Of a stretch of DNA of 64,000 nucleotides, positions 23,692-41,812 are shown piece by piece (the first letter of the stretch is position 1; the number at the start of each line of letters is the position of its first letter). The translations under genes and the position numbers were made by a program. The notes below the pieces were generated by a model. It saw only the letters and a list, made by a program, of their open reading frames with translations, was not told the origin of the DNA and searched no databases. Origin of the DNA: Candidatus Buchananbacteria bacterium (lineage in GTDB: Bacteria; Patescibacteriota; Patescibacteriia; CAIXNZ01); contig WJKP01000014.1 of NCBI GenBank assembly GCA_014729025.1, positions 543 through 64,542 on the forward strand. Direction: 5' to 3'.

Positions 23692-24411
23692 TTAATCCTC
23701 TCTTTGGGCTATTACTAAACCATAAATTTCACTAAAACCTTTTTGTTCTAAAGCTTGAGCTGATTCAATTAAGGTACTGCCAGTTGTTACAACATCATCA
23801 ATTAATAAAATTTTTTTATTTTTTATTGATTCCTGATTATTAAAAATAAAGGCATTTTTAAGATTGGTTTGTCTTTCTTGCCGATTCAAATTAACCTGGC
23901 TCATGGTATTAATTTGCCTAATTAATAAATTTCGTGTAGGGATTTTATAATATACACTTAATTTTTGGGCCAAAAGCTCACTTTGGTTAAAGCCTCTGGC
24001 CAAATAACGCTTTTTATGCAAAGGCACGGGACAAATTATAGTATTATCAAAATTAATTTGAAAAATTTTTAAAATATTATTGGCTTTAAGATACCGAATT
24101 ATCAGATCTCCCAAATAATCGCTAATTTCCTCAACAAAATTATATTTTAAATTATGCAATAAATTTTGCAATATTTGATTATTATAATCAGCTACAACAA
24201 AAACAGCTTTTAAAGCTGTCTTTTTTTTACAATTTTCGCAAATTTGACTATGGTTCGTTTGTTTTTTACATAAAACACAATAAAATTGTTTGTTTAATTC
24301 CAAACGTTTAAAACAAGTGTGGCATAAATAAGTTTCTTCCAAGCCACAACTAATGCATTCTTTAGGAAAAATTAAATCAATAAACCAATCTTTCAATTTT
24401 AATATATCCAT
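23692..24411 (-). CDS. comF: ComF family protein (ComFC; double zinc ribbon plus phosphoribosyltransferase domain); last gene of the T4SS-like operon
   Basis: 239 aa; N-terminal CxxC...CxxC...CxxC...CxxC and C-terminal PRTase motif LLIDDVVTTGSTL. Confidence 0.8.
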   Translation of the reverse strand: MDILKLKDWFIDLIFPKECISCGLEETYLCHTCFKRLELNKQFYCVLCKKQTNHSQICENCKKKTALKAVFVVADYNNQILQNLLHNLKYNFVEEISDYLGDLIIRYLKANNILKIFQINFDNTIICPVPLHKKRYLARGFNQSELLAQKLSVYYKIPTRNLLIRQINTMSQVNLNRQERQTNLKNAFIFNNQESIKNKKILLIDDVVTTGSTLIESAQALEQKGFSEIYGLVIAQRED

Positions 24412-24449
24412 ATTCCCAATAACTAATTACCAGTGACTAATGACTCAAA

Positions 24450-25118
24450 TTATTGCCAATAAGCACCGTCTACTTTCCATTCGTCATCAATTTTAACAAA
24501 TGATAATAAAATATCCTGATAAAATACATCGGGATTATTTATATCATTATTAAATTCCTGCCTTTGTGTTTTTACAATGACTTCTGCTTCACCGGCTTCT
24601 TCATCCAAATTTTCCACTTGTTTTGATATAGCTTTAGTTTCAATCGCATAATAAGTATTAAAATCAGGATTTTGTTGCCTTAAATTTTCTTTATAAGTAT
24701 TATTAACCCAATCAGTCATTGATTCAGTCATAAAAACTGATAAATCATCCAAATTAGCATAATTACTCTGATTAGAATAACTGCCAAATCTTTCGGCAAA
24801 TGCTTCGGCTATTAATAAAACGCTTACTTGCTCGGCTTGATTAACTTCCTCAACTTCACCATTTAAAGCCTCCGAATCAGACAAAACCGTCGCATTGGTA
24901 TTATTAAAATTAGTTAAATCAGGTAAAGGCTGATCAGGCAAAGCAGCTGGCTGATTTGTGTTGGCATTTAAATTTGTTTGTGGCGGTGCTTGATCAACAT
25001 TAAAATAAGTTAATAATAAATAAATAATAGCAGCAATAATCAAAAGTAATAATAAAATTACCGCCAAAATAATGATTTTCTTTATTTTTTTTGCTCGTTC
25101 TTTTGACTGTTCAGCCAT
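24450..25118 (-). CDS. Bitopic membrane protein (short cytoplasmic N-terminus, one TM, about 180-aa extracytoplasmic domain); possible VirB8/TcpC-like component
   Basis: 222 aa; topology and size fit VirB8-like proteins; located directly downstream of virB4; no sequence motif recognised. Confidence 0.3.
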   Translation of the reverse strand: MAEQSKERAKKIKKIIILAVILLLLLIIAAIIYLLLTYFNVDQAPPQTNLNANTNQPAALPDQPLPDLTNFNNTNATVLSDSEALNGEVEEVNQAEQVSVLLIAEAFAERFGSYSNQSNYANLDDLSVFMTESMTDWVNNTYKENLRQQNPDFNTYYAIETKAISKQVENLDEEAGEAEVIVKTQRQEFNNDINNPDVFYQDILLSFVKIDDEWKVDGAYWQ

Positions 25119-25154: not shown

Positions 25155-27101
25155 TTAAATATCAATTTCTTCCACTCCACCGCCTGTTTTAGGCGGAGTT
25201 TTGGGTTGACTTTCAGCAGATTCAGCTACAGCACCGCCTGATTCTTCTTCAAATTCCCTTTTTGAAGCTTCAATCTCTAATAATTGTTTGGGGTCAGTCG
25301 TAATCAATTGATCTTCACTGTATGAAGCCACTATTTTAATTGCCGCATGCTTTCTACCGGCAAAAAAGATACCTTCACCAACACCACATTCCAAAAGTAA
25401 GTATTTCTCGCCTTCAGTCAATAAAAATACTTTTTGAATATTATCAATCGCTGCAGGTGATTGCTTTAATAGTAATTGCAAAGCTGAATTGGTTACAATT
25501 GCGCGGCCATAAGGACTGTTCAAAAAATCATTTACATCCTGGGTAATAGTAGTTACACCTAAATAATATTTTCTACATCTTTTTACTAAAGCATAAATAA
25601 ATTTTGCTGAATCTTCATGTGTCATTAACCACCAAGCTTCATCAATTACTAAAATTCTTTTCTTTACTTGAGAACGTACTACATTCCAAATATAAGTTAC
25701 GATCGTATATATAGCTATTGGCCTTAATTCATCTTCCAAATCTCTAACGCTAAAACAAACCAACTGATTTCTCATATCAACATTAGTCGGCTGATTAAAT
25801 AAGCCGGAAAAAGTCCCTTCAGTATATTTTCTTAAACGTAAACTCAAATCTTCAGCACCTTCCATGCCTTCCAAAATATTCTGCAAATCCTGCATAATTG
25901 GCGGTTCAATTTTTGCTAAATCAGCTTGTGGCGTAATATCTTTTGAAGCATAAGTTTCTATTAAAGCACGATCCAAAATTGAATCTTCTTCGGTTGTTAA
26001 ATCACCGAGCATTAAACGTAACAAACCTTTTAAAGAAATTACACTGCTTCTAATAATATCTTCTGCGCTGGCATCGCCAACTCCTCTTGGCAAATCAAAC
26101 GGATTAATTTTTTCTTTTGACGCCAAAGAAATATTAACATAAGTTCCGCCAACTGCTTCGGATAAATGCGCGTATTCTCTTTCGGGATCAATAATAATTA
26201 CATCTGTACCTAGCATCATACTTCTTAAAACTTCCAATTTTACGGCGTAACTTTTACCGGCGCCCGAGGTAGCAAAAACAACATAATTGGCATTTTGCAA
26301 TGAAAATCTTTCAAATATAATTAAACTGTTATTATGCCTGTTTACACCGTATAAAATCCCCTCATCAGAAGTTAATTCTGATGAAATAAACGGAAAAGAA
26401 GAAGCAACCGGTGAAGTATTCATGTTAAAAGAAATTAAAAGCTCGTCATTAGCTAACGGAATAGTTGAATTTAAACCTTGTTCTGCCTGATATAAAACTT
26501 TTTTAGTATAAATTAGTTTGCCACCAAAAATTGATTCTACTTCTGAAGTCAACTCGTCTAAATCTTCTTCATTGTTGGCATAAATAGTTGTATATAATGC
26601 AAACTGAAAAAATCTTTCTATCCCTTGGGTTAAATCATCTCTTAATTTTTCAATATCTCGTAAAGCTGTTTCCAAAATAGGATCACGTGGCGCGCCTTTT
26701 TCAATATCTGACATTAATTGAGCCTGTAAATTACCCACCCGTTTTTTTAATTGTTTTAAAATTATTTCTGCTTTTACAGGATAAAAAAACATAGAAACAT
26801 CTAAGGTCTTGCTTAAACTAATTATTGGTGTAAACCAGCCAATAGTTATATAACGAGGATAATTTAAGACAAAAATAGTTCTAACATAAGTATCACCCAA
26901 AATAACATAAGTTGGTTTAACCTTAAAAGCAGCCGGCGCAATTAAATCTTTAACACTGACTTGTCCTTTACGATAAACTTTTTCTTCTTCTAAGGTAATC
27001 TCTTCTGCCTTAACGGCTGCTTCTGCGGATTTTTTTTGCTGATTTTTTTCTTCCTCCCCAGAAGATTGATTTTTTTGAGGTGTTGGTACTTCTAAAGCCA
27101 T
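25155..27101 (-). CDS. virB4: VirB4-family T4SS ATPase (Gram-positive TcpF/Orf16/PrgJ-like), ATPase part
   Basis: 648 aa; IAPAAFKVKPTYVILGDTYVRTIFVLNYPRYITIGWFTPIIS block typical of Firmicutes VirB4 homologs, Walker A SGAGKSY, Walker B VIDEAWWLM, TITQDV motif. Confidence 0.8.
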   Translation of the reverse strand: MALEVPTPQKNQSSGEEEKNQQKKSAEAAVKAEEITLEEEKVYRKGQVSVKDLIAPAAFKVKPTYVILGDTYVRTIFVLNYPRYITIGWFTPIISLSKTLDVSMFFYPVKAEIILKQLKKRVGNLQAQLMSDIEKGAPRDPILETALRDIEKLRDDLTQGIERFFQFALYTTIYANNEEDLDELTSEVESIFGGKLIYTKKVLYQAEQGLNSTIPLANDELLISFNMNTSPVASSFPFISSELTSDEGILYGVNRHNNSLIIFERFSLQNANYVVFATSGAGKSYAVKLEVLRSMMLGTDVIIIDPEREYAHLSEAVGGTYVNISLASKEKINPFDLPRGVGDASAEDIIRSSVISLKGLLRLMLGDLTTEEDSILDRALIETYASKDITPQADLAKIEPPIMQDLQNILEGMEGAEDLSLRLRKYTEGTFSGLFNQPTNVDMRNQLVCFSVRDLEDELRPIAIYTIVTYIWNVVRSQVKKRILVIDEAWWLMTHEDSAKFIYALVKRCRKYYLGVTTITQDVNDFLNSPYGRAIVTNSALQLLLKQSPAAIDNIQKVFLLTEGEKYLLLECGVGEGIFFAGRKHAAIKIVASYSEDQLITTDPKQLLEIEASKREFEEESGGAVAESAESQPKTPPKTGGGVEEIDI

Positions 27102-27112: not shown

Positions 27113-27766
27113 TTATTGTTCTATACGAAGTTTATTAATATCGCGTAATTTTTGATTTTGGCTGGTTCTTGGATTATAAACATTATAATATAATTCAATC
27201 AGACTCTGAGTATCTAAAACAGCGGTTTCTAAACCCATGCCTCTTAAATTTGACTGAATATTATTGATTCTTAAGCGCAAATCCTCTTTATATTCTAAAA
27301 ATTTTTCTCTCTTAATTTTTATCAATTTACCAGGTGTAAATAATTCTTTTAATCTTGTCCAAAAACTTTTGGATTTATCACCTAAAGGATCATAAGGGAT
27401 TACAATAAAAAAGCTTTTAGTCATGATTTCGCCTATTTCAATTAATTCTTGGATATATTCTATATAACTGTTTATTTGTACTTTTAATAGGTCGTTAGTC
27501 TGTTTTTTTCTCGCTTCATTTAATCTTCTTAAATAACCTTCAATATCTAATTGCCTAGACTGAATAACTATTTGCATAGGATGATCTAATGAATTTAAAA
27601 ACTGCATATAACCGCTGATTAAAGCTTTTTGTTCATCTTCTGATTTTAATGCGAAATTAATACTGGAACATAAAATAACTGAACGTAAAGTACCGTCTTT
27701 TAAAATAACCACTCCTTCTCTGATTTCGGCAATATCCAAGTGTTTTTGGGTTGTATTTTTTGCCAT
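27113..27766 (-). CDS. VirB4 N-terminal (CagE/TrbE/VirB-type) domain encoded as a separate ORF
   Basis: 217 aa; ILKDGTLRSVILCSSINFALKSEDEQKALISGYMQFLNSLDHPMQIVIQS resembles the conserved N-terminal block of VirB4 proteins; 11-nt gap and different frame to the ATPase ORF. Confidence 0.5.
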   Translation of the reverse strand: MAKNTTQKHLDIAEIREGVVILKDGTLRSVILCSSINFALKSEDEQKALISGYMQFLNSLDHPMQIVIQSRQLDIEGYLRRLNEARKKQTNDLLKVQINSYIEYIQELIEIGEIMTKSFFIVIPYDPLGDKSKSFWTRLKELFTPGKLIKIKREKFLEYKEDLRLRINNIQSNLRGMGLETAVLDTQSLIELYYNVYNPRTSQNQKLRDINKLRIEQ

Positions 27767-27774: not shown

Positions 27775-28206
27775 TTATTTAATTATTTCTTCTTCCCTAA
27801 AAGCACCGCCTGTATTAACAACCAAAGATAAAGAAGATAATTTATCACCGACCAAAGGTTCTTTGGGCGTAAATTTTTCTTCCTCTTTTTTTTCTTCTTT
27901 TTTGGGCAATTCAGTTATTTCTGTTTTACCCCATAGTCTTAAATTAGGTCTTTTTAAGGTCTGAACTAAATTTAAAAAGAAATAATGAAAAGGCATACCA
28001 TTGACTTTAAAAAAAGCTATCATGCCAAAAATTGCGGTTGTTAATAAAGCAACAATTATAAAAGTAGTAAAATAAAACATTTTATAAAAAATAAAATCCA
28101 ACATACCGGCCACCATCATAATAAAAAATTGCCGAGTCGTAATTGGACCAATAATTTTACTTTCAACATCAATAAATTGTGGTACTAAAAATTGATCAAA
28201 AGCCAT
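27775..28206 (-). CDS. Small 2-TM membrane protein, VirB3-like by position and topology
   Basis: 143 aa; two adjacent TM helices, charged C-terminus; sits just upstream of the VirB4 ORFs as VirB3 does. Confidence 0.35.
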   Translation of the reverse strand: MAFDQFLVPQFIDVESKIIGPITTRQFFIMMVAGMLDFIFYKMFYFTTFIIVALLTTAIFGMIAFFKVNGMPFHYFFLNLVQTLKRPNLRLWGKTEITELPKKEEKKEEEKFTPKEPLVGDKLSSLSLVVNTGGAFREEEIIK

Positions 28207-28209: not shown

Positions 28210-29760
28210 TTAATATTTTAAATTTTTATTTAATTCCATTATTGATTTAAATTCTAATAATTCTAATTCATCTGTCTCTTCAATCACTTGTTCAAAAGAT
28301 TTACCTTGATTAATTGCCTTATTCATTATATCGGCATAAATTTTATAAAGCGGGCTTTTCTTCAAAGCTTTAATCCCCTCAACTTTTTTAACTAATGATT
28401 CATCTTCCAATAAATTAAGTTTTTCTTTTAATTTAGAAGTTGCTTCCTGGGGATCTTTGGATAAACGCCGAAAATCAGCGATTGTAAAAGACGCTAATTC
28501 TTCAATCGGACCGTATAACCTTGGGGTAAATTTAACATCTTCTACTTTTGGCCGGCCACCTTGTTTTTCTTGTTTTTTAAAAATCGGCTGCTGAGAAACT
28601 TGTTTGTCTGCTGGTGGCGTTTGCGATTCAGCTGGAGCTTGACTTGTTACCTCATTTTTTTTAATTGATTCTTTTTTTGCTACAGTAACTTGAGATTGTT
28701 TATCCTGCGCTATTCCTTTTTTAGCTTTTACTGAAGTAGGTGTATCTTGAATTGAGTTTGGTGCAAAATCAAAATCAGCAAACGGATCTTTTTCTTTAGC
28801 CGACAAATTGACGTTTTTTTCTATACCTGGCTCTTTTTTTTCTTCTTTAGCCGAATCTGACTGAGCTGCCATAGGCGGTGGCGGAGCTAACTCTTCATTT
28901 GTCTCTAAAAAATCTTCTTTATCTTCTATTTTATCAGCTAAATCCGCAGATTCTTCTTTTTTTTCAATAAACTCTTCTTTTTCTTTTAATTCCCGTTTAA
29001 TTGCTTCTTTATGAGCCAATTCTTCAAACTCGACGCCTTGATCTTTTAACAATTGATCAATAGTCACTTCTTCCCCGGTAGTTTTTTCAGGCTTTGTCTC
29101 CGGCTTAACTGGTTTTGATTCAACATCTATATTAGTTTCCTGTACAACATCGGATTTAGGCATAACAAATTCTTCTGGCAAACTTTTTTCATATTCGGCA
29201 ATAACTTCATTAATATCAACATCTTCTTTTTCCATTTCTTCTTTTTTAACTTCTAATAAATCCCGTAATTTATAAAAACTTTCTTCAGGCATACCAACTC
29301 CCCCAATTTTGTCTGAACGGGTCATTACTTCTTTTAATTCAGCAAAATCACGAACATCCTTTAACCAACTAACCAAAGCTTCTAAAAATCTTTGTCTGAT
29401 ATTATCATTTTTAATTTTAAATTCCGGCAACTTGGCTAATAATTCATCGGTCATTATTGGCGGACTGAATTTATTTGCAGTTTTATCTTGTAAATTTTTT
29501 TTGATCGGTTCTAATTTTTCTTGTTTATCAAGTATTGAGGTTTTTAAATCATACGCCAAATCACCGGCTTTATTAAAATCAAGCTCTAATTTATCGCTAA
29601 ATAATTCAATTAAATCAAGTGGTTGCACCTTACCTAAAATAGCGTCAATTAAAATCTCCAATACTTTATCTTTATTTTCTAATTCATAATCTTGTAGAAT
29701 TTTTTTTAAATCATTGCTCAAATCACCGAAATCTTCTATTTTAAATTTATTGTCAGTCAT
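28210..29760 (-). CDS. Hypothetical acidic soluble protein (Glu/Lys-rich, coiled-coil-prone)
   Basis: 516 aa; no TM, no recognisable motifs; 3-nt gap to the next gene. Confidence 0.4.
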   Translation of the reverse strand: MTDNKFKIEDFGDLSNDLKKILQDYELENKDKVLEILIDAILGKVQPLDLIELFSDKLELDFNKAGDLAYDLKTSILDKQEKLEPIKKNLQDKTANKFSPPIMTDELLAKLPEFKIKNDNIRQRFLEALVSWLKDVRDFAELKEVMTRSDKIGGVGMPEESFYKLRDLLEVKKEEMEKEDVDINEVIAEYEKSLPEEFVMPKSDVVQETNIDVESKPVKPETKPEKTTGEEVTIDQLLKDQGVEFEELAHKEAIKRELKEKEEFIEKKEESADLADKIEDKEDFLETNEELAPPPPMAAQSDSAKEEKKEPGIEKNVNLSAKEKDPFADFDFAPNSIQDTPTSVKAKKGIAQDKQSQVTVAKKESIKKNEVTSQAPAESQTPPADKQVSQQPIFKKQEKQGGRPKVEDVKFTPRLYGPIEELASFTIADFRRLSKDPQEATSKLKEKLNLLEDESLVKKVEGIKALKKSPLYKIYADIMNKAINQGKSFEQVIEETDELELLEFKSIMELNKNLKY

Positions 29761-29774: not shown

Positions 29775-32700
29775 TTAAGGAGTAGAGCCTTTTTTCTTTT
29801 CGCTTACCTTATAACCAATTTTTTTCATTTTACTTTTGAATTTCGCTAATTCACCATTAAAAGCTTTTGAATTAGGAGCTGTTTGTAAAGCTGATATTAA
29901 ATTATTAAATTCCTGTTCTACTAAATTGGGATCGATACTGTCTTCATTGAGAGCACCTCCTGTTATTTCATCTTTCAAATGCTTAATAAGTCCGTCTACT
30001 TTAAATTGCATTCTACTTGGATCTTTATTACCTTTTTCAAACTGCTCTTGAATTGAATCAGCATAATTACGCATTTTAACTGAAGCTGATTTCTTTAATT
30101 CTTCTGTATCTCTATGTCTATCTTTAATTTTTGATTCATTCTCAATTAATACTTCGGCTGTTTTGGTCGCATTAGAACCTTTCAATCCTGTATTATCGGA
30201 AATTTGCTTAGCTATAACTTTTATACGCTCCTGCTTATCTTGCTCCTCCTCAGTTGCTTCTAACATCTCAAAAGCTTCGTCGTCAATATATTTTACAGCT
30301 TGTTGCTTTGCAGTTGCTGAAGCGGCTGGTGGCATAACATTTTTCACATTATCTTCAATAACAGCTCGTGCGCCTTCTTTTTTTCTAATTTTATTAATTT
30401 TTTGGGCAATATTTTTATTTTTCGTACCCTCTTTTTGAACACGACCGTCATCATCATATTCGGCACTGACCGCTTTATATAATTTTTGGTGTCTTTCTAA
30501 TTCTGGGGCTGACAGATTAGCTGTTTGATCATCCATTTTTTTATAATATTTTTCGATCCTGGCTTCCCATTGGCTATCAGTTTCTGATAGACCTGTTGTC
30601 GGATCAATTCTGCGATGTAAGCTTTGATCAAAATGTTGTTTATTGTTTTCAATAATTTCTCTTCGCTCAGCATTATTTTGCGCAAAACGCATTTCTTCTT
30701 TAACTTTAACATTGGCACGCGAAGGATCATCCCAGCCTGAAACACTGGCTACTTTATAAGTCAAGCCGTCCATCTCTGCACCTGCAAAATCTGGAGATTC
30801 ACTTGGATCACCAAAATCTTTTTGCTTGGCTATCTTATTAGCTTGATCATCACTCACACTGGCCGTGCCTTCACGAACTTCTTTCCTTTTACTTTGTAAA
30901 ACATCACCCAATCTGGCCACATTATAAAAATCAGAACCAATATCAGTACCACTGCTTACCAAATTTTGTAAAGCTTCTTGTTTGTCTTGAGATAAATCCT
31001 TAAAAGCCTTTGAGCTTGTATCAAGTTTATAAGTACCGTCGTTATTTTTTTCAGTAATACTTTTCATTTCAACATCACTTAAATCGACTGCGTTACCACT
31101 ATTATCTACGGCATTACGCATAGAAGCCTCGCCTCTTTGTTCTAAGTCACTTAAATCTTCATATTCATTAGTTTCTTCATTATAAACCAATGAAGAAAAA
31201 GCTTTTTTCCTACCAGTTGATTTTTCCACTCGGTCTTCCATGTCTTCTAAAAATAATTGTTTTTCTAATTTATCCTTATCCTTAAAAAAACCTGCTTGTT
31301 GTAGCTGTTTAACTTCTTTATTGGTTAATTTACCATTATCAGCCAACGTCTGAGCATAAAATTCCATGGCTTCTTTATTTTTACTTACTGCATCTAAATC
31401 CTTAACATTACCGTCTTCATCTATATTAGTTTCACCCCCTAAAATTTCTTTTTTAAATTGTTTTTTAACTTCTGCGGCATTTTTTTTATTGATATCCGTC
31501 CTTGTTTCACCATAAGCTTCAGCATGCTTAGCATCAGTCTCTCTTTTTGTTGCACTACCTACAATCGGTTTTTTTATTGCTGCTTGTAATTTTTCCATTC
31601 CTCTAGCCCTTCCTGCCTTAGTTAAATATTTACCCACACGAGACCGTTCTAATCTTTGAGCTCCGGCTTCTCTAGTAGCACCTACTAAAGGCTTGGCTGC
31701 TCTACCAGCCCATCTAGCTGGGGCTGTTACGGCTCTGGCTGATCGTCTAGCACCTCTTTCCAGTGTATTTTGGGCGGTATTTTTCATTTTATCTGCGGCT
31801 CGGCCAGCCATTCCAGAACCAGCTACGGCAAATTCTTGAGAAAATTTTAAACCACCCACTAACATAAGAATCCCCATCATAATAGAAATCATATTATCCA
31901 TGCTACCGGCTTTACTATTAAGAATCTGCTGGCCTTGTCGTTTCCCAAAATCATATTGATCACTTGGTACCATTTGATCATGATTAAGATTAACCATGGT
32001 TAAAAGTGCTAGCCAAAGAAAAAAAGCCATAAAAGGACCGATCATACAATAATTGAAAAATTGCCCCCACCATTTACTGGCCAAAGAACCGACAGTACCA
32101 CCTTGTCCTTGAAAAACCCAAGCAAAAAAAGCTAATGGAGAAAAAACAACCAAAGCCCATAAAGCAACTATTCTAAAAGCCAAAATTATACAAAAAATTA
32201 ATAAAACAATCAAAGTAACTACAGTATAAATTAAACCTAAAATAGATGCAGCTATCATGGTTAGTCCTTCATTCCAATCTATTTTATCTTCTAAAGCACC
32301 AATGGGATCCTCAGCTATTCGAAACCAATCGGTCATGGCTAAACCTTTAAAAATATTACCGGCCGAAATATCCTTATAAGCATTAACAAAAGTTATCATT
32401 AAAACTTGGAAAAAATCTATAATTAAACCGCAAATAGTCTTGCTAAAATTTACCAAAATTGCCATAATCAATAGCCTGGCCAAAAGCTTATTCCATTGAT
32501 ATTTTTCAATTTTTAAAACAGTCACAAAAGCAATAAAAAGTAAGCCTAAAATAAAAAACATGTTAACCAAGTCACGCAAAATTACCCAGCCTTCATTAAC
32601 ATAGGGATTATCAATAAACCGATTATACATACTTATCCATACAATAACTTCCATCAGCAATATAACCAATTCCCCACAGAGCTGTGTCAAAACACCAATC

Positions 32701-32995: not shown

Positions 32996-35900
32996 TTATT
33001 GGTAATCTTCTAAATTAATTAAAAATGGATAAAAAGTTATACAGGCATAAGGCTGATAATTATTATTCGTATCATATAAATCATTAAAAATGCCGTTATA
33101 AACCGGATTTAAAGTATCAAATTCCAAACACATACCTTCCAACCCATTAACCTCTGTCATGGTCTCTATTTCTGATGTATCCTCACAATCAGGATCTGGT
33201 AATGCTCCTTTTAATGTCTCTGGGGCATAACAAAGATTATTATTGGTTGGCTCATCAGGAAAATAGGTTGTAACTCCGCCGGCTTTAACTTCATAATAAT
33301 TGCACATATTACCCAAGGTATCTGGACTGGTTGACGGACTATAAGTATTTAAAATATTTTTATATTCTTGCTGTTGAGATAATTGAAAGGGCAAGGGTGA
33401 ACTTTTTTCCGGGAATATTTTGCAAATCGGTTCGGTATAGCGTTCATCATCTAAATTGCCTAACTCATTAACAACAGGGTATTGGTCAAATTGTTTATTT
33501 AATTCAGCTTCAATTGGGAATCTTTCCGGAATAGTATACCCTGAATAATCACCAGCTCGCCATTGAGTCAGCCTGGTTAATTCTCCAGCGCCAAAACGAT
33601 AAATATAACCGCTTTTACTTTCATAATCACTTATCCGCTTTACAACAATGGGATCAGAATCTAGATTATAACGCACATTATCTTTTTTAGGTGAAAATTT
33701 GGTACATTCACCGGCAAACTCTTCACGGCATAAATCAATTTCAGTACAAAAACCATTACTATCTTTTTCAGCACAAATTGCCCATTCAGCGCAATTGCGA
33801 TCTTTTTTAACTTTTAAAATCTCATTGGTATTATTAAAAGTATTTAAAAATTCAACACAGCCTTGATTCCAATCAACATTGGTACAAGCTGAACGATTAA
33901 TATCATTACCAGCATCTATTACAAAATAACTGTCTTCTGTATTATCTTTTATCTCTATTTGATCATAAAGAATATAAGAACTTGGACAATTTCCTTCATC
34001 AGTCCTTACATTTTCATTACGCGGCGCATAAATAATCACTTCATAATTTTGCAAATCGTCATATTCAATCCAATCATTAACTGGCTGATTATTTTCATCA
34101 ACAACTGATTCACAGTCAAGTTTGCTTGTAAAATTAGGATCTGAACATTCACCATGAGGAACCGTAAATAAAATCTCTACTTTTTTCCAGTCAGTTTCCG
34201 CCTCATAATTATAAGCTAAACCTGGTTCAGTATTGTTTTGATCAATATAACGATTAATCGCAATTGTCGCTTCAGGCAAAGGACAATCATCACCTTTACC
34301 TTGAGCGTCAGCCGGTACTTTATAATAAAAACTGGCTTTATAAGTTTTACCTTTTTCCAAAAAGGCTACTTTTTGTTTAATGCCAAAACTTGGCACCACA
34401 TCTTCATCCAATTCACAATCAGGATTATCACGAATATAAGTGCTTGGACAATCTTGCGTAGTATTTTTTATTAATTTAACGGCTTTTGAACCCGATTTAA
34501 CATCATCAGTTTCTATTTGTTGATTGCCGGCATCGGCTGCTATAGTTGTCCAACTTGAAAGGCGACCATCTGGATTAAATTCAAAGCTACCATTAGCTAC
34601 ATAATTAGGATTAATATCAACAAATTCATTGCAACCATCCCAGCGGTCATCACATTCACCGACATAACCTTTATATTTATTGGCTTCAAAAACTTTATAA
34701 ATAGTAAAAGGTGTAGCCAAACATTGCCCGCTATCAAGCCATTCGCCGTTTCCTAAAACACAAGATTCCTGATCATTGATATCATTTAAAATAACTGTAC
34801 ATTGATCATAATCAAGACTCCAGCCACCACCATTGGCTTCACACTCTTCTGGAGTATTATAAGCCAAAGAACCGCAACCCAAAGTTTGACTGCCTTTTTT
34901 AAACCAACCTTTAACGTTTTGGTTATTAACGATTTTTTCACCGTATTGACATAATTTAGTCGGTTCAATTTTATAATATTCAGGACTTCCCAATTCATTG
35001 ACTAATTCAGTGCAACCTAAACCTTGGTGACTGCACATAGTTGCTTGAGGTACATTAATATATCGGTCCGGATTATTTTTTAAATATATATCTTCAAAAC
35101 CGGTATTTTGCAAACCTTCAAAAATCGGTCGGCCAAATCTTTGACAACCTTTATTATTAGACGAGCACCGATAATTATCATCTAAAACCAATGTGATTAA
35201 TTCATCGCTTGGGACCTGATAATCATCCAAATAAGTCGTATTATCATTATTAAAATTCTGCTGATTAGGATTGATTGAATTTTGAGTATCCATTAAAACT
35301 TGACAGCCAACCGCACTTTCACGGCATAAATTAGTAAAAGATTTTAAATTATGCCTTTGCCCTAATGAATCATCATAAGCTTGGCAGCCTAACATGGGAT
35401 GGGGATCATTAGGGTCTTTGACGCCAAAAATATTTCTATCACAGCTATCCGGAGTAAACCAGCTATTTTTGAGCACATAAACATTATCGCGAATAACCCT
35501 AAGGGCAATATTATCCAAATAAATCGGTGTATCTATTTCAGTAAAAACTAATCGATTATCAGTTACATCTGACCAGCTAACCAAAACCGGTCCCAGATTA
35601 TAATTTTGCCATTCATCAGTCAATGTAATTTGATTATCAACTGAAGCAAATTCTTCTAAAGTTGTCTGATCTTCATCTGCTGTAGCAGTACTAAATCTTA
35701 TACTTATATCTTCACTTTGACCGGCTGATTTAGCCCAAAATGATAAAGTATAAAGATTACCTTGCTGAATATCAACCTGTTTATTAATACTATTAAATTC
35801 TGAGGGCACAAATAATGAATGGCCACCGACTTGAACTGACTCACCAACCATAGTTAAGCCACTACCTTGCTCAGACAAACCACTATACCAATCCAATTGA

Positions 35901-38900
35901 CCCTGCTCAAAATTGTCAAAAACTTGCATATAAACATTATTCCCCTGATTGCCAATAAAAGCCCGGCAACCATTAGCCTCAGCCCGGCAACTAATACCTT
36001 CGCTAGGAATAGCGTCATAAAGACAAGCATTTATATCACCTTGCCAGCGACCATTAGTAACCAAACAATTTTCTTCTGTTGATTCTGTTTTTCTATAAGG
36101 ATGGCAATCCTCGGATACAGAAATAGTTTTTCTAATATCACGATAATATTCATTGCCTTGATTATCAAAAAAATTAATACAATTAAAATCATTTTCTCCA
36201 ATCGTCAAACGACAATCACCTTCACCATCAATTATTTTTGGGGCGCCGGTCTGCTCATCTTGCTGAAATTCATATCTGACCAATTGCGGCGGGCCGCTAG
36301 ACGAACCTTGCCAACTAAAAAATGTTTTCTCCCCTAAATCAAGGTCAGGCCTAATACATTGTCTTAAATAAGTAAAATATTCTATACCTTCACCGCCTTG
36401 AGCAACTTCGTCTAAATTAGTAAATTGAGCACAACCAACTTCAGCGTAACTACATTGAGTTGCGGTTTCTGGAATAAAATAATGATAAAGCGGATCAGGC
36501 TCTGGTTCATATAAAGCTGCTTCCTGCTTATAAGTATCATAACCAACACATTCCGCGGGGCAATAATCAGTCGCACTAACTACGCCCGGTATATCAGGCC
36601 CGCCAGCTAATGGCGTATAAAGTTGACAGCCAGCTTCCTCTGCTAGACATATTTTGGAAAAATTATCACAAGCATCAGCGTCAGGTGCGTATTGATAACA
36701 ATCAATACTGTCTTTATATATTAATTCTTCATCCCAATAACCATTATTAGCTTGACAATTTTGTTTGGTTAATGGAGAAATATCTAAAACTGGAGCAGGA
36801 TCACCTTCGCCATACCCCTGACAATTTAAACGTTCTGGTGGCTTTTTATAATAAACTTTGCTGTTTAATTCATAATCCTGATACTGAGAAATAAAATTAT
36901 AATTTCTGACCTGTTCAATAGTATTAAGCGACAAATCAAGACCATCAACATAAACCGTGGCACCTGTCTGGCCGCCAGGTAAATTTAACCAAACATCCAG
37001 CTGCGTACCAGCATTAGTAGTAATTAAAGTACTATCAACTTGTGAATAAAATTCCGTGGCATAAATTTCATTACTATTAATTTCCTGATCACCGCCTAAA
37101 TAAGTTTTTACAAGATTAAAACCAATCGGTTGATTTAAGCTTTGATTGGCTGCAATATAAGCTGTTGCCGTATAAACATCACCGCCTTTGGTTAATATTT
37201 TATTATTATCATTAAAACTACTAGTATAGACTAATTGCAATTCTTCATTATCACCTAAATTACTGATATCTATTTCTAGTCGGCTCAACCCGCTATAAAC
37301 ATTAGAACCTTCTTTAGAAACCTGAGCCAAATCACTAAACGGGCCGTATCCGCGCCATTCACCTAAAAAATCATCACATTGATTTTTATTTTGCGGATTA
37401 TTAACTCGGTCATCAGAACCATACAAAGCAGCTCCCTGACAGAATTCTGACCAACTGGCATTATCATTGGCTAAACAATCTGCTTCCGATTGTAATTCGG
37501 GTTCATTTTTAACAACACCTTCAATTTGGCATTGCTCTACCCAAGCACCGCCATGGTTTAAACATTTATCTTCGGCGCTAACACCACCCTCATCAGTAAA
37601 TTGCGGGTTTGCGCATAAATTATATTTTAAAACACTATAAATACACGTTCTTTGATAATTACCGCCAGAGGCCAAACAATCGGTTTCATCAACATCCCTA
37701 TTAACTGCTACCTGACAAACATTAATCCAATTGGCTCCAGCTGCCAAACAATCTGCTTCTGTTTGACTTACCCCATCATTACAAATACTTTCCCAAGTCC
37801 CACCATTATTCAAACAAGTTACTTGATCAGCATAATTATAATCCAAACATATTTCATTATATCTACCATCCAATGATTCGCATTCACCCTCACCAGTAAC
37901 TCTGGCTTTTAATCTTAAATCCCAATTTTGGGGAAAATAACCTTGCTGAGTGTATTCAAAACTAGAATCAGTTACTAAATTATTATTAGGCTCACGATAT
38001 AAGAAAAATTCATTACAGCCCTCTTGATTCCGATCACAAATTTCCGCATAACGATTTAAATAAATTCTTTCAGATGCGCAACCTTGACCTTCTACCCAAG
38101 TCCCGTCAATGGCTGGGTCTGTACAAGTTGAATCATCAAATTCAGAAAAATCTTTCCATAATCCAGCTACGGTTTTAGTTGCATACCAAATACAACCGGC
38201 ATTATAATCACCGCAAGTATCACTACCGCTTAAAGTATTTTTTAAATAAGAAACTGACCGAGTACCTTGAGCATCAGTCAATGTATAGGTCCGACAACTA
38301 TTAAATTCTTCCGGGCAAGAGTCAGCTGTAAACTGCCAACTATTTTCTTCTTTAACACAAATGCCATAATCTTCATCAACACAACCACCTCGATCATCTT
38401 CTTTTAAACAGCTAGCAAAATCAGGACAGCTTGAATATCGCTGACCGGTTGAATTCGTAACCAATAACTCGTTATAAGGCTCCAGATCTGTTTTTAAAGC
38501 GCATTTGGTAGCTGGTAATTTTAAAACCCAATTAGGATCAACTAAATTACAAAACGGCGATTCATCAATATCAAAATCACCGCAACGACCTGAACCAGCT
38601 TTATAAAAACCATTAACTACATCGGCTAAAGTCGCATTAACAACTTGATTTAATTTTTGTTGATTATAAGCTTTGATTTCATCTAAATCTTCTGCGCCAA
38701 ACCCGGCATACGGTTTAAAAATACAATTCCTTAATTTTTGAGTTTTATAAGGTTCAACATCAAATAAATTGTAACCATAACGTGAACAATCAGTCCCAGC
38801 GTCACAAATGTCTTGGAATTCATCATAATCGATTTCTTGCCTATAATTACAATCTCTAATTAATTCAGCTGCCAATTCTAAGCCTAAGGGCACTACTCTG

Positions 38901-40909
38901 GCTTTTCTTAATTTTTTAATATTAGCTAAATGATAAGTACCCGGTTCAGTTTCTTCTCCCCAAGAAAATTTATAATCACCGATTAATTTTCTTTGCTCCA
39001 TTGCCTGCGTAATTGTTAATTCATCATTAATTGCTAAAGCAAAATTAGGGTCTATAACATTATTATAAATATTAGGATTAACCTCCCCTTCAAGGTTTAA
39101 CTGAAATTCTGATAATAAATCCACATCTTTATAAGAATAATTGACCTGATATTGTTTAGCCAATCTTTCCACATAACTCCTTACTCCTTCACCAGTAATT
39201 ACTTCTTGCTCAAATGGATTATAAATATCAAGAAACGGTGCTGGTTCAAAACCAGGTTGTTCCAATTCGCTAGCGGTTTTTTTTAATTTTTTATAAGATT
39301 CTGTTTCCTGTTCCCCGCTATATAATGCTTGTAATAATCTTTGGGTCAATTCGTTCCAAAGTGTTTCCAAAAATACGCCTAAAGCATCAGCAGCAATGTT
39401 TTTTGTATAATAACTGGCTGTTTTTTTACCGGCCACAATATCTTCTTCGGCTTTTTTTCGTATAATATTAGACGGTGTCCTAATAGTATCACCGATTCTA
39501 TCGGTTATTGATTTCCAGCCATTATTAACTGTTGCCTGCAAATGACGATTTAAAGCTTCATTTAAACCGATTGTTGCCATTTCCCTAGATAAAGTCTCAT
39601 AAGCATTAAATTCATTGGCTTCAGGACTAAATAAATCTTTAGCTAAAGCAAAATTATAAGCTGCACTGCCTTCAAAAAAATCAGGGTTAAGTTGTTCACG
39701 AACCTGAGTTCTTAAAAATTCAAAACCACTTTTTAATGAATTAGTCAAATTAATAACATAATTAACTTTAGTAGTATAATCATTTCTAAATGCTCTTTCT
39801 AATTGCTCACCCAATTCTGGGCCAACCCGCGCAGAAGTCGGGGGTGGAGTAACATTTAAATCATTTAAAATTACTTCGCATCTGCCCGGCCGATTAGCCA
39901 ATTCAGCCGGACCTTTGTTTTTACAAAAATTATAAGTATCTTGAATTTGATCAATTTTTTCTATTTGCGGATTAATTTTATTAACCCAAGCTTCTCTAAT
40001 TAATGGAATATTTTCCGGTACTATCCGATAACTGCCAATACCTTGACTTAATTGGGCTTCAGTATCAGATAAAGCATAATTAAGCATTATACTAACATCA
40101 TTTTCCATTTCTTGGGTATTTCTTTTTAAATTATCAGCACTCTCTTTTAAAGCTCTTTGAATACTGTTTTCCGGACAAATAACATTTAAACCTTCATTTA
40201 ATACTGAACAATCAACACTATAACCATTTAACCTAAAATCCCAAATTTGCAAAGTTTGGTCTTGAGTTAAAACTGTTGTCATTAATTCAGTATTTTCTTG
40301 AAATTGTCCGCCAGCGCCAATCCCAAAATCAGCAGAAATAAAATCTTCTAAATTTCTTTGGCCTATCTCTTCCCAGTGGCTTCTTAATTCTGTCCAGGAA
40401 CAATCAGGTTGATAGCCTTGCCATTCCGGAAAGGACGGAATATTTATAGCTAAATCAATTGCAATACTGGGATCAAGAGTACAAACATTAATACCAGTCA
40501 CATCTTGTATTACTGTCTGCACAAAATCACCAATCGCTGCATCGGCATAGCCGGAAACAAACCCCTCAAGATCAGTAATAAATTGAGGTCCCTCACCTTG
40601 ACCGCCACTAGCCACCCAAACCGCTGTTTGCTGCGCCATTAAATTAGCTAAATTCCCCAAAACATTTTTAAAAAAAACCGCTTTAATTTCGTCCCAAATT
40701 TTAGACAGCAATCTGTCAGTTGATTCTTCTGTCTGATAAATCGTATCTATTGCTGTTTTATTTGGCACTGATCCCATTTCAATAACCGGTAAAGGTACTG
40801 GTTGGGCATTAACCTTTGATACATCTACATAAAAATTAGTTAAAATAAAAATTAAAGCAATAATACCAATTATAACTTTTTTAAATTTTGTTAAATTAGG
40901 CTTTAGCAT
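32996..40909 (-). CDS. Giant (2637 aa) secreted/anchored cysteine-rich surface protein with CBM4/9-like (NGSFE...W) beta-sandwich modules and tandem Cys motifs
   Basis: N-terminal signal/TM; Cys-poor first ~700 aa then highly Cys-rich; tandem DCLxxGGxWxxxC repeats (about nt 37430-37880); three segments starting like CBM_4_9 domains (SSFEYTQQGYFPQNW, DNFEQGQLDW, NGSFEFNPDGRLSSW). Confidence 0.6.
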   Translation of the reverse strand: MLKPNLTKFKKVIIGIIALIFILTNFYVDVSKVNAQPVPLPVIEMGSVPNKTAIDTIYQTEESTDRLLSKIWDEIKAVFFKNVLGNLANLMAQQTAVWVASGGQGEGPQFITDLEGFVSGYADAAIGDFVQTVIQDVTGINVCTLDPSIAIDLAINIPSFPEWQGYQPDCSWTELRSHWEEIGQRNLEDFISADFGIGAGGQFQENTELMTTVLTQDQTLQIWDFRLNGYSVDCSVLNEGLNVICPENSIQRALKESADNLKRNTQEMENDVSIMLNYALSDTEAQLSQGIGSYRIVPENIPLIREAWVNKINPQIEKIDQIQDTYNFCKNKGPAELANRPGRCEVILNDLNVTPPPTSARVGPELGEQLERAFRNDYTTKVNYVINLTNSLKSGFEFLRTQVREQLNPDFFEGSAAYNFALAKDLFSPEANEFNAYETLSREMATIGLNEALNRHLQATVNNGWKSITDRIGDTIRTPSNIIRKKAEEDIVAGKKTASYYTKNIAADALGVFLETLWNELTQRLLQALYSGEQETESYKKLKKTASELEQPGFEPAPFLDIYNPFEQEVITGEGVRSYVERLAKQYQVNYSYKDVDLLSEFQLNLEGEVNPNIYNNVIDPNFALAINDELTITQAMEQRKLIGDYKFSWGEETEPGTYHLANIKKLRKARVVPLGLELAAELIRDCNYRQEIDYDEFQDICDAGTDCSRYGYNLFDVEPYKTQKLRNCIFKPYAGFGAEDLDEIKAYNQQKLNQVVNATLADVVNGFYKAGSGRCGDFDIDESPFCNLVDPNWVLKLPATKCALKTDLEPYNELLVTNSTGQRYSSCPDFASCLKEDDRGGCVDEDYGICVKEENSWQFTADSCPEEFNSCRTYTLTDAQGTRSVSYLKNTLSGSDTCGDYNAGCIWYATKTVAGLWKDFSEFDDSTCTDPAIDGTWVEGQGCASERIYLNRYAEICDRNQEGCNEFFLYREPNNNLVTDSSFEYTQQGYFPQNWDLRLKARVTGEGECESLDGRYNEICLDYNYADQVTCLNNGGTWESICNDGVSQTEADCLAAGANWINVCQVAVNRDVDETDCLASGGNYQRTCIYSVLKYNLCANPQFTDEGGVSAEDKCLNHGGAWVEQCQIEGVVKNEPELQSEADCLANDNASWSEFCQGAALYGSDDRVNNPQNKNQCDDFLGEWRGYGPFSDLAQVSKEGSNVYSGLSRLEIDISNLGDNEELQLVYTSSFNDNNKILTKGGDVYTATAYIAANQSLNQPIGFNLVKTYLGGDQEINSNEIYATEFYSQVDSTLITTNAGTQLDVWLNLPGGQTGATVYVDGLDLSLNTIEQVRNYNFISQYQDYELNSKVYYKKPPERLNCQGYGEGDPAPVLDISPLTKQNCQANNGYWDEELIYKDSIDCYQYAPDADACDNFSKICLAEEAGCQLYTPLAGGPDIPGVVSATDYCPAECVGYDTYKQEAALYEPEPDPLYHYFIPETATQCSYAEVGCAQFTNLDEVAQGGEGIEYFTYLRQCIRPDLDLGEKTFFSWQGSSSGPPQLVRYEFQQDEQTGAPKIIDGEGDCRLTIGENDFNCINFFDNQGNEYYRDIRKTISVSEDCHPYRKTESTEENCLVTNGRWQGDINACLYDAIPSEGISCRAEANGCRAFIGNQGNNVYMQVFDNFEQGQLDWYSGLSEQGSGLTMVGESVQVGGHSLFVPSEFNSINKQVDIQQGNLYTLSFWAKSAGQSEDISIRFSTATADEDQTTLEEFASVDNQITLTDEWQNYNLGPVLVSWSDVTDNRLVFTEIDTPIYLDNIALRVIRDNVYVLKNSWFTPDSCDRNIFGVKDPNDPHPMLGCQAYDDSLGQRHNLKSFTNLCRESAVGCQVLMDTQNSINPNQQNFNNDNTTYLDDYQVPSDELITLVLDDNYRCSSNNKGCQRFGRPIFEGLQNTGFEDIYLKNNPDRYINVPQATMCSHQGLGCTELVNELGSPEYYKIEPTKLCQYGEKIVNNQNVKGWFKKGSQTLGCGSLAYNTPEECEANGGGWSLDYDQCTVILNDINDQESCVLGNGEWLDSGQCLATPFTIYKVFEANKYKGYVGECDDRWDGCNEFVDINPNYVANGSFEFNPDGRLSSWTTIAADAGNQQIETDDVKSGSKAVKLIKNTTQDCPSTYIRDNPDCELDEDVVPSFGIKQKVAFLEKGKTYKASFYYKVPADAQGKGDDCPLPEATIAINRYIDQNNTEPGLAYNYEAETDWKKVEILFTVPHGECSDPNFTSKLDCESVVDENNQPVNDWIEYDDLQNYEVIIYAPRNENVRTDEGNCPSSYILYDQIEIKDNTEDSYFVIDAGNDINRSACTNVDWNQGCVEFLNTFNNTNEILKVKKDRNCAEWAICAEKDSNGFCTEIDLCREEFAGECTKFSPKKDNVRYNLDSDPIVVKRISDYESKSGYIYRFGAGELTRLTQWRAGDYSGYTIPERFPIEAELNKQFDQYPVVNELGNLDDERYTEPICKIFPEKSSPLPFQLSQQQEYKNILNTYSPSTSPDTLGNMCNYYEVKAGGVTTYFPDEPTNNNLCYAPETLKGALPDPDCEDTSEIETMTEVNGLEGMCLEFDTLNPVYNGIFNDLYDTNNNYQPYACITFYPFLINLEDYQ

Positions 40910-40948
40910 AGCCGAGAGCTTATTTTATTTAAAATTTGTATATTAAAA

Positions 40949-41812
40949 TTAAGTAGCGTTCAAAGTCTCTAAAAATAACTGCTTCAATGTTTCATCATCA
41001 ATCTGCTCTAATAAACTTTTATCTATACCTCTTTGTTCTAATTCTTGACGAATTTCATCCGGTGATAACTCTTTTAATTCTTCTTTAATGGGTTCTTTTT
41101 CTTCTGAACTTAATTGCTCTGCTTCTTGAGCTTGTAATTCTCTAGCCTGATCAAGCATTTCTTGTAACTGAGGATCATTAAGCCCTAATTCCTCTAAAGT
41201 AATTTCTCCAGATAATAATTGGGTTTGTAATTCTAATAAATCCGAATCTAAAACTGCTGAATCTGATGAACCTAATTCGTCCATTTGATTTGTATTAGCA
41301 AAATTCTCTTGCTCTTGCTCATAAAATTGTTCATTTTCCATATCTGTTGGTGCTTCATCTGTTATTTGCGGCCCATAACATTCTTCTCCTTCGGGACAAG
41401 CCGGATCAGTACCTTGAACAATTTCTTCCTTATCCAAAAGACCATCACCATCAGTATCTTCTAAATAAGCACTGGTTTTATAAAGATAAATTTCACTATA
41501 ATCACTTAATCCATCCAAATCACTATCTTGTTTTTGCAATTTAGCAGTTTCCTCTTCTGTTGTTGCTTCATTTGTATTTGCAACTTGATATTGTTGCCTT
41601 AATTCGCCTCGTTTTTCTCTTAAATAACTGGAATATAAGGGCTCTTCAATATTTTTTTTAAACTGTAAATAACCTAAAACTGCGGCAGAAATTGTAATTA
41701 ATACCAAAAAAAATACGAAAAATTTCTCCATTGGAGTTTTTTCTATTTTATTCGTGATTTTTTCGCTTTTTTGTTCAAAAAAATTTTTAATTCTTTCTTT
41801 TTCTTCTGGCAT
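40949..41812 (-). CDS. Membrane-anchored acidic protein with thrombospondin-type-3-like Ca-binding motif; first gene of the operon
   Basis: 287 aa; N-terminal TM; DSDLDGLSDYSE...DTDGDGLLDKEE (DxDxDG) repeats; acidic coiled-coil tail. Confidence 0.4.
   Translation of the reverse strand: MPEEKERIKNFFEQKSEKITNKIEKTPMEKFFVFFLVLITISAAVLGYLQFKKNIEEPLYSSYLREKRGELRQQYQVANTNEATTEEETAKLQKQDSDLDGLSDYSEIYLYKTSAYLEDTDGDGLLDKEEIVQGTDPACPEGEECYGPQITDEAPTDMENEQFYEQEQENFANTNQMDELGSSDSAVLDSDLLELQTQLLSGEITLEELGLNDPQLQEMLDQARELQAQEAEQLSSEEKEPIKEELKELSPDEIRQELEQRGIDKSLLEQIDDETLKQLFLETLNAT

Follow-up and report, generated by a model that had tools for sequence, protein, structure and literature searches.

The type IV secretion systems (T4SSs) of Patescibacteria have been described as newcomers to their superfamily in a FEMS review of December 2025 (PMC12857230), which speculates on a pilus conduit for the uptake of host molecules and notes that theirs is the first T4SS without which the bearer itself was shown not to survive. 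The T4SS of Southlakia epibionticum ML1 (SEML1_0006-0019) is essential for epibiotic growth and most resembles Gram-positive conjugative systems, yet it has pilins, and neither a coupling protein nor a relaxase can be recognised in it (Wang et al. 2023, Cell 186:4803; PMC10633639). Transposon sequencing (Tn-seq) in that study scored as essential an extended VirB6 (VirB6ext), a 998-amino-acid (aa) soluble protein, PrgI, a 293-aa gene in the TrsD position, VirB4, hydrolases and six pilins. A survey by Quinonero-Coronel et al. 2025 (Microb Genom 11:001409; PMC12102498) places the VirB4 proteins of Patescibacteria in a monophyletic clade related to MPF-FATA, with TrsD as the commonest virB4 partner, PrgI/VirB3, VirB6 and VirB2-like pilins also found, and VirB8 homologues nearly all in ABY1. 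Relaxases are rare, genes for the type IV coupling protein (T4CP) lie mostly far from virB4, and the survey infers a non-conjugative role. Here, we report a nine-gene T4SS operon on the minus strand of a 64-kb stretch of DNA (the window) from a Candidatus Buchananbacteria bacterium (contig WJKP01000014.1, positions 543 to 64,542). We take the Uhrbacteria, Falkowbacteria, Buchananbacteria and Magasanikbacteria lineages to belong to class ABY1 of GTDB. The operon encodes a complete cytoplasmic-membrane translocon, comprising an extended VirB6, PrgI/VirB3, VirB4 with a separate TrsD, and a VirB8-fold scaffold. We conclude that the locus is probably a chromosomal, vertically inherited and non-conjugative T4SS of an ABY1 Patescibacterium related to Magasanikbacteria and Uhrbacteria, derived from the monoderm MPF-FATA/CD1110 conjugation machinery.

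The motor of the system places it within this family. The VirB4 ATPase (648 aa; 25155–27101) matches NF045971 (conju_CD1110) with 365 bits against a cut-off of 325, over profile positions 170–730 of 752, and PF19044 (P-loop_TraG) with E 8e-28. Among PDB structures it matches 4ag5, the C-domain of Thermoanaerobacter VirB4 (E 8.9e-46), and TrwK (E 5e-7). The Walker A (SGAGKSY, residue 279) and Walker B (DEAWW, residue 487) motifs are present, and the nearest plasmid genes encode CD1110 VirB4 proteins of Firmicutes and Actinobacteria at 28–36% identity. To survey relatives, we scanned one genome per species, obtained 263 VirB4 relatives and examined the best 80 of the 263 over 10 kb on either side of VirB4 (loci numbered L001 onwards). 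Directly upstream of virB4, separated by 11 nucleotides (nt), a 217-aa open reading frame (ORF; 27113–27766) matches NF041427 (TrsD) with E 5.8e-9, under the curated cut-off of 200 bits, and also aligns to positions 11–100 of the CD1110 VirB4 profile and to positions 102–287 of VirB4_plasma (mycoplasma VirB4). TrsD stands directly upstream of VirB4 in 70 of the 80 loci, including distant classes with only 38–41% VirB4 identity; the split is therefore ancestral, and we rejected a frameshift as its origin. The 143-aa protein encoded next (27775–28206) belongs to the PrgI family (PF12666, 37.1 bits against a cut-off of 27, E 4.6e-9), carries a hydrophobic hairpin at residues ~30–70 and has homologues in 47 loci. 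The significant match of the 648-aa protein to a VirB4 profile thus bears out the original prediction of a Gram-positive-type VirB4 ATPase with these two motifs, and the TrsD and PrgI matches agree with its calls of a separate VirB4 N-domain ORF and a VirB3-like protein.

Known CD1110/MPF-FATA systems (CTn2, pCF10 prgH-L, pGO1 trsC-E and Paenibacillus plasmid NZ_CP118103) likewise encode PrgI directly upstream of VirB4, TrsD as in pGO1, and VirB6 and VirB8-fold partners, with no outer-membrane core genes. Both partners are present here, and their assignment in an ABY1 locus is now backed by fold evidence, which confirms the earlier VirB6/TrbL-like and VirB8-like calls. The 1070-aa VirB6-like polytopic protein (29775–32987) consists of a ~400-aa transmembrane (TM) domain and a ~650-aa charged tail; its family profile, compared with PDB sequences, returned coiled-coil noise from the charged tail and nothing else. 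We also considered whether this protein is a VirB6 fused to a ~340-aa gene of its relatives, and rejected this possibility: the sole counterpart of the tail is that of the L002 VirB6, which is cut off by the contig end, and the ~340-aa genes do not match it. Most Magasanikbacteria-like loci (L005–L034 and L065) have an additional soluble gene, ~320–440 aa long, between the VirB6 and 516-aa protein homologues; it is missing from the window, L001 and L004, and L003 has at this place an unrelated 343-aa gene, the N-terminus of which by eye loosely resembles that of the 516-aa protein. The 222-aa VirB8-like protein (24450–25118) is bitopic, with an N-terminal TM helix, a disordered linker and a C-terminal NTF2-like domain. 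Its identity follows from a fold search, as sequence profiles matched the TM segment only; the FliL, DotF and VirB10 matches (Pfam, NCBIfam and PDB) were discarded as reflecting composition. Homologues occur in records named Uhrbacteria, Falkowbacteria and Buchananbacteria.

Between VirB6 and PrgI, the operon encodes a soluble 516-aa protein (28210–29760), a conserved member of these T4SS operons that has homologues in 46 loci, always upstream of PrgI. It has no TM segment and is net acidic, as noted earlier from its sequence (114 Asp plus Glu against 86 Lys plus Arg). Conservation is limited to the C-terminal ~115 aa. Neither Pfam nor PDB profiles gave a significant match, and the hits of an alignment of the C-terminal domain (MspI, TMP_2 and fumarase C, with E above 1e-4) are not credible.

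All nine ORFs are intact and lie exactly where the original prediction placed them; in the order from TSP3 anchor to ComF, they are separated by 39, 8, 14, 3, 8, 11, 36 and 38 nt. The 3′ end of the operon is bounded by two tRNA-Ser genes on the plus strand (GCT, 23286–23378; TGA, 23481–23568), found by both ARAGORN and Rfam, and at the other end the TSP3 gene is set off from the upstream ksgA by 80 nt of AT-rich DNA. We did not accept a 105-aa ORF (23340–23657, minus strand) as a tenth gene: it is antisense to the two tRNA-Ser genes, and its translation has tRNA-derived motifs. Consensus promoters and terminators in the operon were at the level of shuffled sequence (95 against 85 ± 9 and 15 against 12 ± 4, respectively), a scan that is uninformative in such AT-rich DNA. 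The eight short intergenic gaps are nearly pure A/T and by eye none contains a Shine–Dalgarno-like purine run, which suggests Shine–Dalgarno-independent initiation or translational coupling in the source organism.

The arrangement is widely shared. The block VirB6ext/516-aa protein/PrgI/TrsD/VirB4/VirB8-like/ComF recurs in identical order and strand in 27 species-level genomes and is therefore not a chance arrangement, a result that answers the proposal to compare synteny across candidate phyla radiation (CPR) genomes. The genes for the 516-aa protein, PrgI, TrsD and VirB4 co-occur in 46 loci. The 80 loci come from metagenome-assembled genomes (MAGs) titled as CPR lineages or with generic or evidently mislabelled titles; many of the third-party annotation records among them bear evidently wrong placeholder names. 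The closest ~50 VirB4 relatives (67–93% identity) are in MAGs titled Magasanikbacteria, Uhrbacteria, Parcubacteria or 'Patescibacteria group', and the nearest loci are in Magasanikbacteria, Uhrbacteria and Falkowbacteria MAGs. Across species at this level of VirB4 identity the chromosomal context is also the same, with KsgA upstream and ComF, tRNA and RecG downstream; in about ten loci RecG, RadA and a 165-aa membrane protein are nearby, and the arrangement in the window differs from theirs by a simple inversion.

This shared context bears directly on whether the locus is an integrated conjugative element or the decaying remnant of one, its VirD4, relaxase and oriT lying outside the window or recently lost. 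VirB4, PrgI and TrsD all belong to families found on conjugative plasmids and integrated elements of Gram-positive bacteria, the order PrgI then VirB4 is that of the Paenibacillus plasmid module, and the 2025 survey lists a few Patescibacteria (15 cases) with relaxases near virB4 (PMC12102498). However, conjugative CD1110 modules also encode VirD4 (CD1115), an FtsK-like protein, an NlpC/P60-type hydrolase and a relaxase and reside on mobile DNA, none of which applies here. Pfam scans of all window ORFs of at least 100 aa revealed no VirD4/T4CP, VirB11, relaxase, integrase or peptidoglycan hydrolase in the 64 kb, and no match to the lysozyme, SLT, CHAP, NlpC/P60 or M23 families. When we used the VirD4, FtsK-like and NlpC/P60 proteins of the Paenibacillus conjugative-type module as phmmer queries against the window and the 80 loci, neither VirD4 nor NlpC/P60 had a match in the window or within 10 kb of VirB4 in any locus, and the FtsK-like query gave one weak match, to a ~110-aa ORF in L070. 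The absence of VirD4, VirB11, relaxase and a VirB1 hydrolase from the window, as first noted from the sequence, is thus upheld. On each side of the operon, 22–23 kb of housekeeping DNA from a reduced CPR genome (KsgA, ROK kinase, amylase, RF-1 and HtrA upstream; tRNAs, RecG, RadA, ClpC and PheST downstream) contains no repeat boundary, integrase, relaxase or T4CP; further housekeeping genes in the window encode RseP-like, MurI, GlmM, MPG, NrdDG/NrdR and MsrAB proteins. Composition is uniform across the window (GC 0.30–0.37). Together with the intact ORFs and the constant chromosomal context of the block, these results bring the reading of the locus as a conjugative element close to refutation, and we consider it highly improbable.

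The T4SS also extends beyond the nine genes. A 180-aa VirB2-like pilin (17782–18324, plus strand), 5.4 kb from comF, matches PF18895 (T4SS_pilin) with 31 bits against a cut-off of 26.6 and has a signal segment, hydrophobic helices and a Cys-rich C-terminal tail. It is preceded on the same strand (14765–17772) by genes for a 329-aa protein with a C-terminal TM segment, a 419-aa protein and a 231-aa DsbA-like thioredoxin (PF13462, E 3.8e-26), and followed by RadA. In relatives this cassette adjoins the T4SS core, and we therefore extend the system past the coordinates first proposed: the cassette sits directly after the VirB8-like gene in L031, L038, L042 and L045, a pilin precedes VirB6 in L023, and in distant classes (L059–L080) pilin-family genes stand immediately upstream of TrsD-VirB4. 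The 419-aa and DsbA genes accompany the pilin and RadA in L031, L038, L042, L044 and L045, whereas the 329-aa gene, matched only in L042, is the least certain member. From synteny alone, we infer that these partners are functionally tied to the T4SS. The original inventory was thus right as to its nine genes and overlooked the pilin. The 419-aa protein (15813–17072, plus strand) is N-anchored and has PD40/TolB-like 'WSPxG' repeats, with weak matches to propeller families. A second N-anchored, propeller-like protein of ~410 aa, with 'WSPxG/SPDGEK' repeats, is encoded at 60080–61309 (minus strand); it has the same weak beta-propeller Pfam match, and the mutual similarity of the two proteins is marginal (E 0.008).

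With this cassette included, the likeness to the Southlakia system becomes apparent. Both share a core order on one strand, which in Southlakia is VirB6 (1088 aa), soluble protein, PrgI, TrsD-position gene and VirB4 (612 aa), and both have an NTF2-like protein, VirB2-like pilins on the opposite strand, no adjacent relaxase or T4CP, and a ComF-family gene followed by tRNA-Ser beside the cluster. They differ in that downstream of VirB4 Southlakia, unlike the window, has lysozyme-like and peptidase genes that are essential, in the number of pilins (six against one), in the position of the NTF2-like gene, which in Southlakia is non-essential and lies between VirB6 and the soluble protein, and in ComF, which there is on the pilin strand, separated by Hsp20, rather than last in the core operon. 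Moreover, the Southlakia T4SS is next to dnaA, and no giant protein with carbohydrate-binding modules (CBMs) has been reported in its cluster. The two belong to different classes, Saccharimonadia and ABY1, with ~40% VirB4 identity between the window and class-level relatives. In Table S2 of Wang et al. 2023, SEML1_0012 (twin-arginine signal, non-essential) is listed with an NTF2-like domain matching 4ec6, the structure of the VirB8-like TraM of pIP501; PMC12102498, by contrast, states that S. epibionticum yielded no VirB8 homologue at the structural level.

The match is closer still to the ABY1 loci of the 2025 survey. These (PMC12102498) have an MPF-FATA-related VirB4, an adjacent TrsD, PrgI/VirB3, VirB6, VirB8 and VirB2-like pilins, lack a relaxase and an adjacent T4CP, are chromosomal and commonly contain comF, recG and radA, and ksgA lies near virB4. 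The statement in the original prediction that the gene content is not a standard described arrangement therefore fails: the system is already described in the literature, and the window is a textbook ABY1 instance, clean and complete, that adds no new class of system. The window differs in having a single pilin gene instead of an array, and it goes beyond the descriptions in the sections of the survey consulted in its giant CBM protein, TSP3 anchor, 516-aa protein and DsbA/PD40-like pilin cassette. With respect to Gram-positive T4SSs, the VirB2-like pilin is an addition otherwise not found among them (PMC12857230). Modestly new are the fold-level backing of both VirB8 and VirB6 in an ABY1 locus, the synteny that ties the pilin/DsbA cassette to the core, the conserved 516-aa protein and the recurrence, at the head of the operon, of sequence-variable giant exoproteins, most of them Cys-rich.

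In the window, this head position is filled by two genes. The first encodes the 287-aa TSP3 anchor (40949–41812), with a TSP3_bac repeat (PF18884, 32.8 bits against a cut-off of 25), a TM segment at residues 31–49 and a strong acidic bias (70 Asp plus Glu against 26 Lys plus Arg). The second encodes a 2637-aa giant protein (32996–40909) with a signal-like N-terminus, 92 Cys (3.5%), repeated C-x2-[NG]-G-x-W-x-C modules and CBM_4_9 matches in two stretches (E 4e-10); it has no match among PDB sequences. The earlier descriptions of a TSP3-like anchored protein and a Cys-rich, lectin-like giant secreted protein are both supported by these features. Neither gene is conserved outside the nearest subclade, and giant-protein homologues occur only in L001, L003, L004 and L081. 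The order in L081 (JGI 3300033388, Ga0370355_1002246) is KsgA, TSP3 (61% identity), giant protein (53–60%) and VirB6ext. Here the giant orthologue (2190–10022) consists of a 555-aa and a 2052-aa ORF 6 nt apart, a split that corresponds to window residue ~568 and suggests a domain boundary or else a sequencing or assembly break.

In other ABY1 lineages, the slot upstream of VirB6 holds unrelated large ORFs, 9 of the 14 examined being Cys-rich (3.2–5.3%), and one Cys-free protein in this slot carries three CBM_4_9 domains. The giant protein is probably a host-surface adhesin or accessory specific to its own clade; we infer the adhesin role from its signal peptide, its 92 Cys, its CBM_4_9 domains and the recurrence of large proteins upstream of VirB6. 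According to PMC12102498, no PrgB-type adhesins were detected in Patescibacteria. The large, mostly Cys-rich, sometimes carbohydrate-binding and mutually unrelated proteins upstream of VirB6 are candidates for the missing adhesin or host-specificity factor, and the giant sugar-binding surface protein of the window appears to be undescribed. In one ABY1 sublineage, a very acidic ~700-aa protein is encoded upstream of VirB6, in L029 (1554–3674) and also in L037 and L044; in L029 it has a Peptidase_M23 domain and is possibly a VirB1-like wall hydrolase, of a type without counterpart at the window locus.

The position of the giant gene also suits a different use of the machine, a T4CP-independent two-step exporter like Bordetella Ptl, in which the Sec-exported giant protein or other exoproteins would be pushed through the wall or S-layer and presented or delivered to the host. 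The giant protein has a Sec-type signal, its gene lies immediately upstream of VirB6 with a gap of only 8 nt, other ABY1 lineages have different large and mostly Cys-rich proteins in the same slot, and no coupling protein is encoded near the locus; T4CP-less protein exporters (Ptl and Brucella VirB) are cited in PMC12102498. However, in many Magasanikbacteria-like loci the genes upstream of VirB6 are all small, and a large cis-encoded substrate is therefore not universal. Furthermore, a Sec-exported protein in a monoderm needs no second membrane step, and a role as adhesin would explain the giant protein equally well. We regard export of this kind as unlikely.

For the preferred reading, a non-conjugative T4SS of host contact, we propose the following mechanism. 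VirB4/TrsD hexamers, docked through PrgI to VirB6ext and VirB8, would power the building of a VirB2-like pilus or stalk as a bridge to the host, and DsbA may help the giant protein and the Cys-bearing tail of the pilin to form their disulfides. The giant protein, Sec-exported and disulfide-rich, would bind glycans or surface polysaccharide of the host cell and thereby set host specificity, filling the role that PrgB-type adhesins have in Gram-positive conjugation; it may be kept at the membrane by the calcium-binding TSP3 anchor. The conduit would mediate host-dependent exchange, as with the homologous Southlakia system that is essential for epibiotic growth. Its cargo could move outward, as effectors or, in the manner of Ptl, as Sec-delivered proteins exported in two steps, or inward, as DNA or other molecules of the host.

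The idea of inward transport of DNA hangs on the gene that closes the operon. The 239-aa protein (23692–24411) has the ComF architecture, an N-terminal double zinc ribbon (PF18912, DZR_2, 32.8 bits against 27) followed by a type-I phosphoribosyltransferase domain (PF00156, Pribosyltran, 36 bits against 26.3) with the phosphoribosyl-pyrophosphate-loop motif ILLIDDVVTTGST. It matches TIGR00201 with E 3e-32 (112 bits, under the cut-off of 233.55) and GntX with E 8e-34, also under its curated cut-off; among PDB sequences it matched phosphoribosyltransferase domains only, with no ComFC structure. The ComFC call is thus sound at the level of architecture, short of the curated cut-offs. A characterised ComFC is cited in PMC10633639, and a role in handling single-stranded DNA would be ascribed to the window protein by analogy only. 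No gene stands between ComF and the preceding VirB8-like gene in 37 of 44 loci, with a median of 27 nt between them.

These observations underlie a further reading, in which the ABY1 T4SS is a contact-dependent importer of DNA or nucleotides: host DNA would pass through the pilus and VirB6 channel to cytoplasmic ComFC and then enter RadA/RecG/RecA recombination or nucleotide salvage, a functional analogue of Helicobacter ComB or archaeal Ced. In keeping with it, ComF is the last gene of the operon at a conserved position, RadA is co-oriented right behind the pilin cassette, RecG lies between both units, and no T4CP or relaxase is nearby, as in ComB. NrdD, NrdG and NrdR, for making deoxynucleoside triphosphates (dNTPs), are encoded in the window, CPR bacteria lack nucleotide synthesis (PMC10633639), and PMC12102498 notes the co-localisation of comF, recG and radA in ABY1 and suggests functional coordination.

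The evidence from Southlakia points the other way. Its ComF-family gene, SEML1_0021 (K02242), lies one gene past the T4SS pilin array, with tRNA-Ser beyond it (PMC10633639, supplementary tables), and was non-essential at every Tn-seq time point, with 56–57 insertion sites and rising read counts, as was ComEC (SEML1_0777) non-essential in the same tables, whereas the T4SS is essential. The essential function of the T4SS in Saccharimonadia therefore has no need of ComF. DNA uptake in Southlakia runs through ComEC, the deletion of which abolishes transformation (PMC12857230). Moreover, the linkage of ComF represents a single ancestral arrangement, that is, one evolutionary observation, and was lost in L031, L038, L042 and L045; the non-ABY1 loci sampled had no clear ComF within 10 kb of VirB4, the sole match being marginal (L069, E 2e-5). 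As the T4SS/comF/tRNA-Ser neighbourhood is common to two classes, it looks old, and the most likely status of ComF is that of a co-transcribed gene inherited along with it, not of an obligatory subunit; obligatory coupling of ComF to the T4SS is unlikely. The suggestion that ComF plays a working role in the machine is thus weakened by the Southlakia results.

Nor is the VirB4 of the ComB or Ced type. Helicobacter pylori ComB, a diderm MPF-T system with VirB7, VirB9 and VirB10 homologues, lacks VirD4, VirB11 and relaxase, and transformation also needs ComEC and ComFC; to our knowledge, comFC is not part of the comB operons. The window VirB4 fits the CD1110 profile far better than VirB4_CagE (117 bits against a cut-off of 643), and the window has no VirB9 or VirB10 family match and no counterpart of the VirB7/9/10 set. 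The original prediction named ComB as the closest described analogue, and this must be given up; any resemblance would be functional at most. Nor does the VirB4 qualify as a CedB-type ATPase (NF041017, 44 bits against a cut-off of 700; CedD, 19 bits), and its similarity to the Ced proteins is only general P-loop likeness.

Overall, we consider import of DNA or nucleotides by this T4SS improbable. Of the two functions first suggested for the locus, host contact stays plausible, and DNA import is possible but unproven. We are equally sceptical of the specific version in which a contact-dependent DNA importer, made up of the T4SS with its VirB2-like pilus and of a giant lectin that varies, feeds host DNA directly to the co-transcribed ComFC and the neighbouring RadA and RecG, independently of ComEC or assisting it. 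If such a device existed, it would give bacteria unable to make nucleotides a route to nucleotides and genes, with the fast-evolving giant protein setting host range. Set against the Southlakia Tn-seq, the comF linkage leads to a specific question, namely whether ComF is conditionally coupled to the T4SS or a mere neighbour. An anaerobic ribonucleotide reductase set, NrdD (684 aa), its radical-SAM activase and NrdR, is encoded at 49787–53499 (minus strand); it would make dNTPs from salvaged ribonucleotides, consistent with a nucleotide-scavenging lifestyle.

Several points weigh against our interpretation of the locus as a non-conjugative T4SS of host contact with ComF as a neighbour. The absence of VirD4 and relaxase covers the 64-kb window, and T4CP homologues far from virB4 are reported in many Patescibacteria in PMC12102498. 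The genetic evidence comes from Southlakia and none of it from ABY1 organisms; for ComF, non-essentiality was observed in this other class under one laboratory condition, which does not exclude a conditional role. ComF follows the VirB8-like gene by only 38 nt and keeps this place in most relatives, and with RadA co-oriented behind the pilin cassette and RecG in between, the three DNA-processing genes exceed what a passenger would predict. That the giant protein is an adhesin and is linked to the TSP3 anchor is drawn only from composition and position, the N-terminal 680 aa of the giant protein have one detectable homologue in our search, and the 516-aa protein, although kept in 46 loci, is without an assigned role.

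Some features of the window lie outside the T4SS. The TTG start listed for RecG (22568) overlaps a tRNA-Arg(GCG) gene (22528–22599, minus strand), and the true start of RecG is therefore further in. At 55930–56547 (minus strand), a 205-aa protein belongs to the Bac_rhodopsin family (PF01036, E 2.7e-23), and TspO adjoins at 54186–54662. The last helix of this rhodopsin contains the retinal-lysine motif D-F-I-T-K (DxxxK), its helix-3 region (P-T-R-W-L-F-Y) is unusual, and in a hand alignment the position of the bacteriorhodopsin counter-ion D85 is not Asp. A survey of freshwater CPR bacteria (PMC9166423) reported type-1 rhodopsins in Saccharimonadia, Gracilibacteria and Paceibacteria, and only heliorhodopsins in ABY1. 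Finally, a 392-aa protein (8730–9908, minus strand) has a weak bactofilin domain (E 1.7e-6) and is possibly a cytoskeletal element in this CPR cell.

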